Made by a program: the position numbers and the translations under genes. The notes below the pieces were generated by a model. The model searched no databases. It was not told the DNA's origin and saw nothing but the letters and a program-made list of their open reading frames with translations. Source: a virus (Duplodnaviria > Heunggongvirae > Uroviricota > Caudoviricetes). From it: DNA of 41,949 bases. Shown here one piece after another: positions 9,332 to 32,855 of the stretch; positions within the stretch are counted from its first letter, which is position 1; each line of letters starts with the position of its first letter. The stretch covers positions 1 through 41,949 of the IMG/VR virus record IMGVR_UViG_2558860473_000005. One strand, 5' to 3'.

Positions 9332-9658
9332 TCAAATAAGTGGTTTGCTGCCTAATTTCATTTTCTGGCGACCAACACAAGTCACACCCATTTCACTGCG
9401 TGGCTTGCTGTACCATGTGCGCTGATTCTTGCGCTCAATACGTTGCAGGTTGCTTTCAATCTGTTCGTGGTATTCAGCCAGCACCGTAAGGTCTATCGGA
9501 TTCAGTGCGCTTTCTACTCGTGATTTCGGTTTGCGATTCAGCGAGAGAATAGGGCGGTTAACTGGTTTTGCGCTTACCCCAACCAACAGGGGATTTGCTG
9601 CTTTCCATTGAGCCTGTTTCTCTGCGCGACGTTCGCGGCGGCGTGTTTGTGCATCCAT
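9332..9658 (-). CDS. N: Antitermination protein N (lambda-type), 108 aa
   Basis: Begins MDAQTRRRERRAEKQAQWKAANPLLVG (arginine-rich boxB-binding motif); essentially lambda N by recall; start set at the internal Met of the track ORF. Confidence 0.9.
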   Translation of the reverse strand: MDAQTRRRERRAEKQAQWKAANPLLVGVSAKPVNRPILSLNRKPKSRVESALNPIDLTVLAEYHEQIESNLQRIERKNQRTWYSKPRSEMGVTCVGRQKMKLGSKPLI

Positions 9659-11098: not shown

Positions 11099-11392
11099 AT
11101 GGTTCGTGCAAACAAACGCAACGAGGCTCTACGAATCGAGAGTGCGTTGCTTAACAAAATCGCAATGCTTGGAACTGAGAAGACAGCGGAAGCTGTGGGC
11201 GTTGATAAGTCGCAGATCAGCAGGTGGAAGAGGGACTGGATTCCAAAGTTCTCAATGCTGCTTGCTGTTCTTGAATGGGGTGTTGTCGACGACGACATGG
11301 CTCGATTGGCACGACAAGTTGCTTCGATTCTCACCAATAAAAAACGCCCGGCGGCAACCGAGCGTTCTGATCAAATACAAATGGAATTTTAA
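11099..11392 (+). CDS. cII: Transcriptional activator CII (lambda-type), 97 aa
   Basis: MVRANKRNEALRIESALLNKIAMLGTEKTAEAVGVDKSQISRWKRDWIPKF... near-identical to lambda CII by recall. Confidence 0.9.
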   Translation: MVRANKRNEALRIESALLNKIAMLGTEKTAEAVGVDKSQISRWKRDWIPKFSMLLAVLEWGVVDDDMARLARQVASILTNKKRPAATERSDQIQMEF

Positions 11393-11414: not shown

Positions 11415-11687
11415 ATGCGAAACAAAGGCTTTAATCCACCTGATACACACAAAGAAGCTAAGCGTTTGCGCTTCCTTCGTTCCATTGATGAAAGAACTCA
11501 AATCTCTTTTGTGAAAGTTGCCAGAACTGAGCTTCTGAAGGCTGAGGCGAGGGCGTTGCTCTCGTCTCTACCAAAAGAGGAGGGATATACGTTCATTCCA
11601 AACGCATTTCTGGAAAAGCTTCTCAAAGAAGACATATCCGTAAGTCAGTTTAACGATGTTCTTAAGGTCTTTCGTCAAGGCAGGTAG
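11415..11687 (+). CDS. Hypothetical protein between cII and the replication initiator, 90 aa
   Basis: GAGGT RBS upstream of ATG; occupies a position where lambda has no gene. Confidence 0.5.
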   Translation: MRNKGFNPPDTHKEAKRLRFLRSIDERTQISFVKVARTELLKAEARALLSSLPKEEGYTFIPNAFLEKLLKEDISVSQFNDVLKVFRQGR

Positions 11688-11689
11688 TT

Positions 11690-12637
11690 ATGAGCAATAC
11701 AGCAAAAATCTACGATTTCAGCGCCGCACACGAGCGCAGGAGCAACAGGATGGAGAACCAGAAAACTGGTTACATTCCGTTGTACCGGAGCATTCTGAAA
11801 CAGTCATGGGCGAAAGATGTTTATCTTCGCACCCTGTGGGAAAACCTTCTCCTGAATGCCGCCAGAAAGCCATACAAAGCGAATTTCAAAGGTCATGAAT
11901 GGCATCTGCAACCCGGTCAACTGGTTGTGACAGCAGCTGATTTAGGTCTTCAGTTATGCGACAGACATGGCAAGCCAGCAAGCCGTGATCAGGTTGAGCG
12001 GATGCTTCAGGTTTTTGTGAAAGAGGGGATGATCTCCATTGATGGAGAGAAGCAAAAAGGTCGTGTGATAACCATCACAAATTACCATGAATATGCTCAA
12101 AAAATGGACAATTTACCCGCACATGAAGCCGCACAAACAACCGCACATGATGCCGCACATGACGAAGACAGTAATGGCGCGGCTTTCAGCGCACATGCCG
12201 CACATGAAAGCGCACATGAAGCCGCACAAACAACCGCACATCATGAACAAGAAGGTATTAACAAGAATATAAATAATACCCCCCTACCCCCCAATGGGGG
12301 AGGCGATGGGCAGGTTAAACCTGAACGTCGCAAGGCAGAACGAATCGACTACGAATCCTTCCTGAACGCCTACAACACCGAAGTCGGTGACAGACTGCCA
12401 CACGCTGTTGCGGTCAACGAGAAACGCAAACGCCGCCTGAAGAAAATCATCCCACAACTGAAAACGCCAAACGTGGACGGTTTCAGAGCGTATGTCAGGG
12501 CGTTTGTGCATCAGGCTAAGCCGTTTTACTTCGGAGACAACGACACGGGCTGGACGGCAGATTTTGATTACCTGTTGAGGGAAGATTCGTTAACGGGAGT
12601 ACGGGAAGGGAAGTTTGCAGACAGGGGGATTGCATGA
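11690..12637 (+). CDS. Replication initiator (O-like / P22 gp18-like replisome organiser), 315 aa
   Basis: N-terminal O-like DNA-binding domain; internal [10 protein letters not shown] repeat encoded by the iteron array; position between cII and the helicase. Confidence 0.7.
12117..12245 (+). repeat. Iteron-like direct repeats inside the O-like gene (putative origin), followed by an AT-rich stretch and a GC-rich palindrome
   Basis: 31-bp perfect direct repeat CGCACATGAAGCCGCACAAACAACCGCACAT at about 12118 and 12211 plus at least 7 copies of the CGCACATG core; AT-rich about 12246-12282; CCCCCAATGGGGG palindrome about 12290. Confidence 0.5.
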
Positions 12638-14010
12638 GACAGGATATCGAAGCGAGCGTTATCGGTGGCCTGCTGATTGGTGGATTAACTCCAACCGCCA
12701 GTGACGTTCTGGCAACGCTTGAGCCGGAAGCGTTTTCAATTCCGCTCTACAGGAAAGCCTTCGAAGTTATCCGTAAGCAGGCGAGAAACAGAAACCTAAT
12801 CGACGCGCTGATGGTTGCCGAGGCGTGCGGAGAGGAGCATTTCACGTCAATCCTGATGACCAGTAAGAACTGCCCGAGTGCCGCAAACCTGAAGGGATAT
12901 GCCGGAATGGTCGCGGATAACTATCACCGCCGTCTGGTGCTGGAAATCATGGATGAAATGCGTGAACCAATTCAGAGCGGAACCATCGATACATCGAGTC
13001 AGGCGATGGACGAGCTTGTAAAGCGTCTTTCAGCCATCAGAAAGCCCCGTGACGAGGTTAAACCTGTACGGTTAGGGGAAATCATCACTGACTACACTGA
13101 CACGCTTGACAGGCGTCTGAGGAACGGAGAAGAGTCCGATACCCTGAAGACCGGAATCGAAGAACTTGATGCCATCACCGGAGGGATGAACGCAGAAGAC
13201 CTGGTGATAATCGCTGCTCGTCCTGGTATGGGGAAAACCGAACTGGCGCTGAAGATTGCCGAAGGCGTTGCAAGCCGCGTTATTCCTGGTTCTGACGTCC
13301 GGCGCGGGGTATTGATTTTCTCAATGGAAATGAGCGCATTGCAGATTGCAGAGCGAAGCATTGCCAACGCCGGGAGGATGTCGGTTAGCGTACTGCGAAA
13401 TCCTGCATCGATGGATGACGAAGGCTGGGCGCGTGTTGCTAACGGCATGAGTCAGCTTGCAGATTTGGATGTATGGGTAGTCGATGCCTCGCGGTTATCG
13501 GTCGAAGAAATACGCTCAATCGCAGAACGGCATAAACAGGAAAATCCAAACCTCTCGCTCATCATGGTGGATTATCTTGGCCTGATTGAGAAGCCGAAAG
13601 CAGACCGCAACGACCTCGCAATTGCTCACATCTCCGGAAGCCTGAAGGCGATGGCGAAAGACCTGAAAACACCGGTTATCTCCCTGAGTCAGCTTTCGCG
13701 CGATGTTGAGAAGCGACCAAACAAACGCCCGACAAACGCAGATTTGCGTGATTCAGGAAGCATTGAACAGGATGCAGACTCAATCATCATGCTCTATCGG
13801 GAAGCGGTATATGACGAGAACAGTAGCGCCGCACCATTTGCTGAAATCATTGTGACGAAAAACCGTTTTGGCTCGCTTGGTACGGTTTACCAGCGGTTCT
13901 GCAACGGACACTTTGTTGCATGTGACCAGGATGAAGCCAGACATATTTGCACAACATCAAATGCACCTGCTGCGCGTGGCAGACGATATGCACAAGGGGC
14001 TGACGTATGA
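12634..14010 (+). CDS. Replicative DNA helicase (DnaB family, P22 gp12-like), 458 aa
   Basis: Walker A GMGKTE context, DnaB N- and C-terminal domain architecture; overlaps the O-like stop. Confidence 0.85.
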
Positions 14011-29410: not shown

Positions 29411-30363
29411 TGGCGGATTCGAATCTCAATGTTCCGGTAATCATTCAGGCTACACGGCTCGACACATCAGTCCTTCCACGCAATATCTTCTCGCAGTCGT
29501 ATCTGCTTTACGTTATCGCACAGGGCACTGATGTTGGTAACGTGGCTAACAAAGCCAACGAGGCCGGACAGGGCGCTTATGATGCGCAGGTCAGGAACGA
29601 TGAGCAGGATGTCACCCTTGCAGACCATGAATCCAGAATTGAAGCTGCTGAAGCAACTCTCATCAATCATGAACATAGAATTGCAGCAGCGGAAAGCACT
29701 CTTGCAGATCATGAAACAAGGATTACGGCTGCTGAAACAGAGCTGGCTGATCACGAGACGCGAATTGCTGCCAATGAATCTGAGTTAGCAAACCATGATG
29801 CGCGCATAACTCAGAATACAACCGATATCGACGCACTTGATACCAGGCTCACAGCGGCAGAGGGAAGTATTTCGACGCTACAAAGCACAGTTGGTGATCA
29901 CTCAACAAGAATATCTGCGCTTGAGTATGCCACCACGCGCAAGAAATCAGAGGTTGTTTACTCAGGGGTATCGGTAACAATTCCGACAGCGCCTACCAAC
30001 CTTGTTAGCCTGCTGAAAACGCTCACGCCGTCATCCGGCACGTTGGCACCATTCTTCGACACCGTTAACAACAAGATGGTTGTGTTCAACGAGAACAAAA
30101 CCCTGTTCTTCAAGCTGTCGATTGTCGGGACGTGGCCCAGTGGAACCGCCAACAGGTCAATGCAGCTAACCTTTTCCGGCTCTGTTCCTGACACACTGGT
30201 AAGCAGTCGCAACTCGGCGACAACGACCGATAACATCCTGTTAGCTACGTTCTTCAGCGTGGATAAAGACGGCTTTCTTGCCACAAATGGCAGCACGTTA
30301 ACCATTCAGTCGAATGGTGCGTCGTTTACTGCCACAACCATCAAGATAATCGCGGAGCAGTAA
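29410..30363 (+). CDS. Tail needle protein (P22 gp26-like) with heptad-repeat coiled coil and C-terminal knob, 317 aa
   Basis: Repeated [10 protein letters not shown] heptads in the middle; conserved N-terminal tip; extended C-terminal domain. Confidence 0.75.
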
Positions 30364-31523: not shown

Positions 31524-32855
31524 ATGGCTACGTGGCAACAGGGTATTAATTCTGGTGGTTTTCTGGCTGGAATTGGTGCGCAAAATGAGAATGCGCCAAA
31601 GGCAAGCGACATTAACGCAACGCTTGGTCTGATTCGCGAAAACAATGAACTGGCTCGCTCAGGTGCAAATAACGTTGGTCTGACCGCGTTACGTGGTCTG
31701 GCTGGAGTTGCTGATATTTACAATCAGGAACAGCAACAGAAAGCTATTAGTGCGTTCAATAAGGTTCACGCTGATGCATGGGCTTCTGGTGATCCATCGG
31801 GACTATTTAAGTTTGCCCGGGAAAATCCAGCGTTTGTTGCACAGGCACAACAGGCGTTTTCCGGTCTTAATGAGCAGCAACGCAACGATATGGGCGATTT
31901 AGCCATGAGGGCTAACGTCGCTCTTTCTCAGGGACCGGAAGCCTACAGTAAATTCATTACTGACAACAAGGACAGGTTAAATCGCGTTGGTGCTAATGCT
32001 GACTGGATGATTCAGACAGGTATCCAGAATCCAGAGCAGCTATCACACATGCTGACTACTATGACGCTAGGGGCTGTTGGTCCGGATAAAATGCTGGATT
32101 ATCAGGATAAGATGGTTGGTCGCCAACTTGAGAAAGGGCGATTGGATGAAAGCATCCGTCAGGCTGACATGGAGAACGCGAGAGGATGGGCAAATATCCA
32201 AAACGCTCAACTAGACAGGGCTCAGCGGGCACAAATGCATAATGATAACGTAGCCCTGAAGTTGCAGGAATTAGGGATGAAACAACAGGAAAGCGGAAAG
32301 ATTGACCCAAAACTTGTTCGAGATCTGAATAGTGATATTAATGGGTTCTCAAAGAATTATTCTGCAATGCGCAGTGCTTCTGACAACCTACAAGCCCTTG
32401 GGAAGCGCAACACTCCAGCCGCGCAGTTGGGAATGATTTTCAACTATATGAAATCGCTGGATCCGCAATCTGTGGTACGCGAAGGTGAGCAAGTGCAGGT
32501 AAAACGCACTGATGGAATATTTGGCACACTTGGTAACTATGTTAGCCAATTATCTAACGGCAAGATGCTGAATAATGAGCAAGTCCAAGACTTAATCAAC
32601 ACCTCAAAACTGATGGCAAATACTGAAGGCGAAAAGTTTAACCAGCAAATGGATGATTATCTTTCAACTTATGGAGATTCTCTCCCCAGCGGACTAACTA
32701 AGCAATTGCAATCCAGAAAAGCCAAGCTGTATGAAGATATTCAGCAGCCTGCGCAACAACAGAGCAATAACCAACAACCGACAAATACCCAACAGCAGCA
32801 GAGTCAATCCGGATCATATACCTCAAAATCAGGCATTCAATTTACGGTGGAATGA
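31524..32855 (+). CDS. Ejection protein, P22 gp20-like, 443 aa
   Basis: Size and synteny; Q/N-rich low-complexity segments. Confidence 0.7.

Follow-up and report, generated by a model that had tools for sequence, protein, structure and literature searches.

Introduction

The replication origin of phage lambda comprises four contiguous 18-bp iterons, every one an inverted repeat, with an AT-rich tract after them, in gene O's central part; in Shiga toxin (Stx) phages, extra iterons lengthen the O protein (PMC7466680). Four repeats of ~20 bp each are described for both lambda and P22, and gene 18 of phage L contains six imprecise 11-bp repeats considered "likely the origin" (PMC8022706). Here we describe a repeat region in the O-like replication initiator gene of a mosaic P22-like Escherichia coli phage or prophage, represented by a DNA stretch of 41,949 nt (IMG/VR record IMGVR_UViG_2558860473_000005; "the window" below is this whole stretch), whose best partial matches are Kapi1, CUS-3, and 611R6. 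By analogy with these systems, positions 12116-12301 are very probably the theta replication origin of this phage, inside the linker-coding part of its own initiator gene. An origin inside an O-like gene is expected for such phages; what is added here is a defined core and register, evidence for selection at the DNA level, and a natural switch in specificity. From its sequence, the region appears to be a lambdoid origin with a phage-L-like split-array layout and a new iteron specificity.

Repeat anatomy

The initiator protein matches Phage_rep_O in Pfam (E 3e-15, amino acids (aa) 20-132) and PHROG 345, "replication initiation O-like" (E 4e-100). Over its C-terminal ~120 aa it belongs to the P22/ST104 gene-18 type and is near-identical to ST104 gene 18. 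The next gene, which overlaps it by 4 bp, encodes a replicative helicase (Pfam DnaB_C, E 8e-79; DnaB N-terminal domain, E 4.5e-13; PHROG 19). The repeats had originally been predicted, from sequence inspection, to lie inside an O-like initiator gene, and these matches bear this out. They occupy the inter-domain linker: the modeled winged helix extends to about aa 136, the arrays code for aa 143-185, and homology to ST104 gene 18 begins at about aa 195.

The original prediction was of a perfect 31-bp direct repeat at about 12118 and 12211, encoding a 10-residue peptide repeat, and of at least seven copies of a CGCACATG core. The 31-bp repeat is indeed exact, starting at 12118 and 12211 and not extendable by a single base on either side, and the peptide repeat is present twice in the O-like open reading frame (ORF), at aa 144 and 175. 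The number of cores was overstated: there are six exact copies of CGCACATG in the region, within 12118-12218; the window's seventh copy is at 9414-9421, on the minus strand. By chance, 2.0 copies would be expected in the whole window, and none of 100 shuffles reached seven.

When the core is relaxed to SCGCACAW, nine copies are found, all on the plus strand (12117, 12129, 12141, 12153, 12189, 12198, 12210, 12222, and 12234), with start-to-start distances of 12, 12, 12, 36, 9, 12, 12, and 12 bp. Tandem Repeats Finder reports two arrays of period 12, at 12117-12162 and 12198-12241. Rather than as a "31-bp repeat" and "seven CGCACATG cores", the region is better regarded as 4 + 4 units of 12 bp, arranged head-to-tail around a 33-bp spacer, each with the core CCGCACA(T/A). 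We rejected the copy at 12189 as a possible ninth iteron, since it is 9 bp off register and degenerate (GCGTACAT and similar) in most close relatives.

ORFs in other frames also run across the repeats (12087-12272, plus strand, 61 aa; 12113-12250, minus strand, 45 aa), encoding PHM- and MCG-rich peptides; these are most simply by-products of the repeat.

Comparison with known origins

As in lambda, the region is found centrally in a Phage_rep_O gene, where the linker is encoded, with transcription from pR; the elements follow in the order repeats, A-rich tract (with A on the top strand), inverted repeat; and the repeats add residues to the protein (PMC7466680). There are also relatives in which this type of N-domain and iterons is fused to the right-hand sequence of lambda itself, TCGTC(A/C)GAGAATTCTGGCGAATCCTCTGAC, and to a C-terminus of the lambda O type. 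The differences are also substantial. In place of lambda's four contiguous dyad units of ~18 bp there are eight one-directional units of 12 bp, four on either side of a 33-bp spacer; protein similarity to lambda O is confined to ~20 N-terminal residues; and the partner is a DnaB-type helicase, as for P22 gene 12, rather than a loader of the lambda P type that hijacks host DnaB. Of the features that characterize lambdoid origins, the linker position in a Phage_rep_O gene, iterons specific to the N-domain, and an AT-rich tract promoter-distal of the iterons are all found here; dyad-symmetric iterons of ~18-20 bp, as in lambda and P22, are not.

With P22 and ST104, the window shares the near-identical C-terminal ~120 aa, a helicase of the same DnaB type, and the DNA from 12263 on, including ACCCCC-TTA-CCCCC-N3-4-GGGGG. 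The N-terminal domains, however, are unrelated in sequence, and the iterons of P22 and ST104 are ~17-20 bp long, contiguous, and dyad-symmetric (TTAGC-N7-GCTAA).

In arrangement, the nearest counterpart is phage L, whose GenBank record (MW013503) has a rep_origin at 31650-31726 annotated as a putative origin. Its sequence consists of three TGTCCAACGGA units, a spacer with ACCAGTAATGACGCGGC, three more units, and an AT-rich tract. Both phages therefore have split, short, head-to-tail units in an O-like linker, lacking internal dyad symmetry, with a DnaB-like helicase gene next, and for both the origin function is deduced from sequence. Phage L differs in having an 11-bp unit of unrelated sequence and no peptide repeat, and its gp18 is only 23% identical to the window initiator. 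The published description gives six imprecise repeats, with no mention of a split arrangement or a shared spacer (PMC8022706). A common layout can nevertheless be defined, of 11-12-bp units in blocks of 3-4 around a AGTAATGRCGCGGC-centered spacer and followed by an AT-rich tract; the window has it in 4 + 4 form. No earlier mention of this shared layout or of its spacer was found in the literature searched, and no description of this iteron type in literature on CUS-3, HK620, Sf6, or P22 with iterons; two papers on the Eru replication regions of Stx phages do not mention iterons.

Conservation among relatives

In DNA sequence, the O gene has 98-99% identity to its counterparts in CUS-3, HF4s, Gally, JEP4, and many Stx2a-converting phages. 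Of 5,426 complete E. coli genomes, 272-283 (~5%) contain the origin segment, and the origin type occurs in at least 50 Stx2a-converting phage records as well as in K1-capsule-modifying phages (CUS-3). No origin is marked at this position in the annotations of CUS-3, Kapi1, or the E. coli genome hits, the last having only "replication protein".

Homologues of the N-domain were collected in three sets: phage records with identities of 47-100%; 36 loci of prophages in other Enterobacterales; and 80 near-identical viral contigs. The scan of IMG/VR yielded only loci 99-100% identical in the N-domain, which are unfit for covariation analysis and were used for polymorphism; the 59 loci with near-identical N-domains gave 39 distinct haplotypes. 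Absence of the repeats from close homologs would have counted against the original prediction, but they are present in every homologue that could be assessed: seven phage records, 33 of the 36 prophage loci, and 59 near-identical viral contigs. The other three prophage loci were not assessable, two (L013, L043) having stop codons and one (L044) being a contig fragment.

All intact homologues of sufficient length have a common layout: three or four units, a 33-bp spacer, three or four units, the codon block CAT CAT GAA CAA GAA, and an A-rich tract. The distance from the start of the last left unit to that of the first right unit is a constant 45 bp in the relatives. This layout holds for prophages of Escherichia, Klebsiella, Yersinia, Xenorhabdus, Enterobacter, Brenneria, Sodalis, Proteus, and Pantoea. 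Across 142 units from 22 loci, the unit consensus is n[C/g]CGCACA[T/a], and the three bases after it are loosely purine-rich.

The spacer is conserved in a different way from the units. Its length and center are kept in 30 of 31 parsed loci, the exception (L019) being a script mis-parse. The window spacer contains GAAGACAGTAATGGCGCGGCTTTC; the spacer center, also written AGTAATGGCGCGGC, is CCAGTAATGRCGCGGC in relatives and GACAGTAATGGCGCGGC in the window. This center is conserved whatever the iteron type, including in loci with unrelated units (L004, L040-L046) and in phage L (L047, 31683-31715), and so is common to initiators only 23-52% identical. At several spacer codons (12164-12188), the amino acid varies while the third base is kept. 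The sequence pattern suggests that the spacer center may be read by a second binder.

Two of the unassessable loci have disrupted O-like genes. That of Xenorhabdus ehlersii (L013) has a stop ~20 codons past the left block and a spacer-like segment, and no right block; that of a Symbiopectobacterium metagenome-assembled genome (L043) has a stop at residue 78. Both are probably decaying prophages. In addition, most database proteins matching the N-domain (P0001-P0012 and others) are listed as "partial" and end at 150-210 aa, in or just past the repeats, which suggests that short-read assemblies often break at the origin, perhaps because several prophages per genome share it.

Constraint at the DNA and protein levels

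If the repeats were maintained for the peptide they encode, amino acids should be conserved and synonymous positions free to vary. At the codon preceding each core, the reverse is seen. Its third base is always C, with zero entropy across 24 species-level loci, while for five of the six unit positions its amino acid has an entropy of 1.2-2.35 bits (proline is invariant at the first). A fixed third base with a varying amino acid is the opposite of what protein-level selection would give, and so indicates a constraint on the DNA. Codon choice within the core is also skewed: the alanine codon is GCA in 140 of 142 units, compared to 26% GCA in the N-domains of the same genes. In nine loci the core is instead CCGCGCA, in 55 of 56 units, against a GCG background of 13%. 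In these loci a synonymous position has changed in every unit, yet the four bases between cores still differ from unit to unit.

Polymorphism among the 39 close haplotypes follows the same lines. The number of minor haplotypes per column is 0.20 in the cores, 1.38 at the variable unit positions, and 0.79 in the spacer; it is highest in the off-register ninth copy (2.38), the most polymorphic stretch, and zero in the A-rich tract. No length changes were found. Taken together, codon positions, codon choice, concerted change, and polymorphism point to purifying selection acting on the DNA sequence and not on the peptide.

Core specificity and the initiator DNA-binding domain

The core sequence changes with the type of N-domain: CCGCACA, CCGCGCA, YCCGAWGAACCA, GAGGTAACAAA, and others. 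N-domains at 47-52% identity to that of the window are accompanied by the same layout with unrelated 12-bp units (YCCGAWGAACCA, GAGGTAACAAA, GTCGAAGGTAGT/GACGAGCCTCCA). Between the CCGCACA and CCGCGCA loci, exactly two alignment columns segregate perfectly with the core. Residue 82 is A or P in the CCGCACA class and S in the CCGCGCA class; residue 100 is D in the former and H in the latter.

An AlphaFold2 model of aa 1-141 has a winged-helix fold, with a predicted local distance difference test score (pLDDT) of 74.8 and most of residues 31-137 above 80. Its elements include helices at 82-88 and 99-111 and wing strands at 115-120 and 124-129. The helix at aa 99-111 (nt 11984-12022) is predicted from the model to be the recognition helix; residue 82 is then the first residue of helix 2, and residue 100 the second of the predicted recognition helix. 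A PDB sequence search with the initiator gave no match, and a Foldseek search of PDB with the model gave weak matches only (E ≥0.008), all to winged-helix DNA-binding proteins, so that the mode of binding has no structural template.

Two loci (L020, L024) are natural recombinants inside the N-domain (codons 1-140). Their first ~75 residues match CCGCACA-type relatives (63 of 74 and 71 of 72 identical), while the half with the helix-turn-helix and wing, like the iterons, is of the CCGCGCA type. Iteron type thus follows the helix-turn-helix and wing half.

A-rich tract, inverted repeat, and modular halves

An AT-rich stretch had been predicted to follow the repeats, and the tract at 12243-12279 is 78% A+T (21 A, 8 T). 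The 40-nt GC minimum here is 22.5%, at 12240-12279, compared to 46.6% for the window; 367 of 41,909 40-nt windows are as low. By analogy, the tract is presumed to be the DNA-unwinding element. It is invariant among the close haplotypes (none of 34 columns polymorphic at 12246-12279). The codon block leading into it is nearly so across the 24 species-level loci: CAT CAT GAA CAA has zero entropy at all three codon positions, and the final GAA 0.41 bits.

A GC-rich palindrome was also predicted. There is an inverted repeat, CCCCC-AAT-GGGGG, at 12288-12300 (arms at 12288-12292 and 12296-12300), but with 5-bp arms around an odd 3-nt center it is not a true palindrome. Counterparts in relatives are CCCCC-TAAC-GGGGG in ST104 gene 18, CCCCC-GAT-GGGGG (L034), TCCCCT-GA-AGGGGA (L041), and CCCCCC-A-GGGGG (ENT1). 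A C5-N(1-4)-G5 inverted repeat is thus kept across different codon registers, encoding peptides such as PPNGG, PPMGD, SPEGD, and TPQGE; its retention despite differing registers and peptides points to a DNA-level role. DnaA boxes (TTATNCACA, up to one mismatch) are not enriched in the window, with 32 found and 40 expected, and none is in the origin.

Similarity to many otherwise different O genes (among them ST104/P22-type gene 18, HK446, mEp213, Nil2, and phage 1717) starts at 12263, and takes in the end of the A-rich tract, the C-rich block, and the C-terminal domain. At least three kinds of right half are found with the same N-domain and iterons: lambda type, P22 type, and Xenorhabdus type. 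The lambda-type right half consists of TCGTC(A/C)GAGAATTCTGGCGAATCCTCTGAC, an O C-terminus like that of lambda, and a gene with the annotation P; it is found in Klebsiella, Yersinia, and many other loci. The C-rich block accompanies the right half of the DnaB-helicase type; loci with a lambda P partner carry lambda's own inverted repeat in its place. Since the right halves are exchangeable, the origin can be divided in two: the N-domain and iterons form the left half, and the inverted repeat, C-domain, and partner the right. The two are joined at the invariant A-rich tract, which is thus the mosaic joint between them. The pattern matches the classical division of O, whose N half is specific for the origin and C half for the partner.

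Possible functions of the repeats

The order of elements, as in lambda, and the conservation at the DNA level support the original reading of the region as a lambdoid origin. By analogy, loss of repressor would allow transcription from pR and production of the O-like protein. Its N-terminal winged helix would read the 8-bp core CCGCACA(T/A) in the eight same-direction 12-bp units, giving a multimeric initiator-DNA complex; strain, probably aided by transcription through the site, would open the A-rich tract; and the P22-gene-18-type C-terminal domain would recruit the phage's own DnaB-type helicase, encoded directly downstream.

Several points weigh against this reading. No inverted core copies or internal dyads were found in the 12-bp units, and lambda- and P22-type iterons have dyads; without the dyad symmetry that O dimers recognize in lambda and P22, the lambda binding mode is not simply transferable. 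How a winged-helix protein would pack on one-directional sites 12 bp apart stays unexplained, as does the spacer, which is conserved without covarying with the initiator. Confidence in the structural model is moderate, and no close relative has a solved structure. The residue/base covariation may reflect one ancestral event plus recombination, and linkage adds to it, because the DNA-binding half is encoded right beside the iterons. Experimental binding, unwinding, or origin activity for this initiator type was not found in the searchable literature.

The repeats might instead serve the protein, as a His/Ala-rich linker (AHxxAHxx...) acting as a flexible or metal-binding spacer, with the DNA repeats a by-product. 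This is quite improbable. In its favor, the repeats keep the reading frame, ~30 loci conserve the AH dipeptide, and added iterons do lengthen the O proteins of Stx phages (PMC7466680). However, third codon positions in the core are fixed while the neighboring residue varies; each locus uses either GCA or GCG uniformly, in a proportion far from background usage; relatives with the same DNA layout encode different peptides, for example PDEPSEEPS and EVTKQVSNEV; and the 11-bp period of phage L shifts the frame from unit to unit, so that no peptide repeat results. A neutral tandem repeat, generated by replication slippage in a tolerant linker and without function, is the least probable explanation of all. 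Short-period repeats are common in linkers, and the Tandem Repeats Finder scores here are modest (73-75% matches), but slippage would homogenize whole units, and the cores are far more constrained than the four bases between them. There is also no length variation among 59 close relatives, and the 3 + 3 or 4 + 4 register with its 45-bp jump is kept across genera.

The arrays could also be binding sites with some role other than initiation (titration or handcuffing of O, a partition-like centromere, or sites for another phage or host protein), with unwinding elsewhere. This is unlikely, although less so than the protein-level and slippage explanations. An arrangement of 11-12-bp direct repeats in two blocks, with a spacer of ~35 bp between, resembles plasmid centromeres such as R1 parC and pBtoxis tubC; TubR is among the weak fold matches to the initiator model; and conservation of the spacer independently of initiator type suggests a second binder. 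Yet the arrays are exactly at the position of the lambda iterons, beside the invariant A-rich tract and inverted repeat, and their core covaries with the initiator's own winged helix. The gene upstream differs among iteron-sharing relatives and so is not the binder, and the core motif occurs elsewhere in the window only at chance level.

Within the origin reading, a more speculative possibility, which we regard as rather doubtful, is that these loci represent a distinct architectural class of lambdoid origin, with three parts and a simple specificity code. The initiator may form two short filaments, its monomers arranged head-to-tail on one-directional sites of 11-12 bp; the non-covarying 33-bp spacer may be read by a host protein or a conserved part of O; and the invariant A-rich opening site may be the third part. 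In the code, a change of D100 to H (with A82 to S) may be matched by the replacement of A with G at position 6 of the core, in each of the units.

As an origin, the region would account for the odd His/Ala repeat in the initiator linker, and would be a defined target for studying or blocking the replication of toxin-converting prophages, in which replication amplifies toxin gene dose. The natural A/G switch in the core, with one or two winged-helix residues, offers a test case for how initiator-origin specificity can change without loss of function, and also for phage mosaicism in which origin halves recombine at an invariant joint.

Gene neighborhood and other repeats

Coordinates of the initiator and helicase genes and of the origin elements are collected in Table 1. 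Genes for a cI-type repressor, cro, and cII are upstream of the initiator gene.

Table 1. Genes and sequence elements of the replication region, in window positions.
Feature	Positions	Strand	Details
O-like replication initiator gene	11690-12637	+	315 aa; origin inside inter-domain linker
N-terminal winged-helix domain coding region	11690-12112	+	aa 1-141
Left iteron array, four 12-bp units	12116-12163	+	cores CCGCACAT/CCGCACAA at 12117, 12129, 12141, 12153
Spacer, 33 bp	12164-12196	+	GAAGACAGTAATGGCGCGGCTTTCAGCGCACAT; off-register ninth core copy at right end (12189-12196)
Right iteron array, four head-to-tail 12-bp units	12197-12244	+	cores at 12198, 12210, 12222, 12234
CAT CAT GAA CAA GAA block and A-rich tract	12239-12279	+	codon block 12239-12253; tract 12243-12279
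C-rich block	12279-12301	+	ACCCCCCT-ACCCCCC-AAT-GGGGG; doubled C-run and inverted repeat
DnaB-type replicative helicase gene	12634-14010	+	458 aa; partner of initiator C-terminal domain

Between cII and O is a 90-aa ORF (11415-11687, plus strand) that matches PHROG 2519, of unknown function (E 7.5e-57), and has no Pfam match; the Kapi1 record lists a CDD Phage_rep_O motif for its homologue. It was considered as a possible iteron binder and rejected, since relatives with the same iterons have other genes there: at this position, relatives sharing the O N-domain encode a DNA-binding protein or a KilAC antirepressor.

On the minus strand at 11341-11368, antisense in the 3' end of cII, is a strong terminator-like hairpin of 12 pairs followed by a T-run, which agrees in position and form with the terminator of the oop antisense RNA of lambdoid phages. 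There are two other tandem repeats in the window, at 29613-29715 (period 42, 2.5 copies) and 32754-32798 (period 18, 2.5 copies), probably in structural or tail genes.

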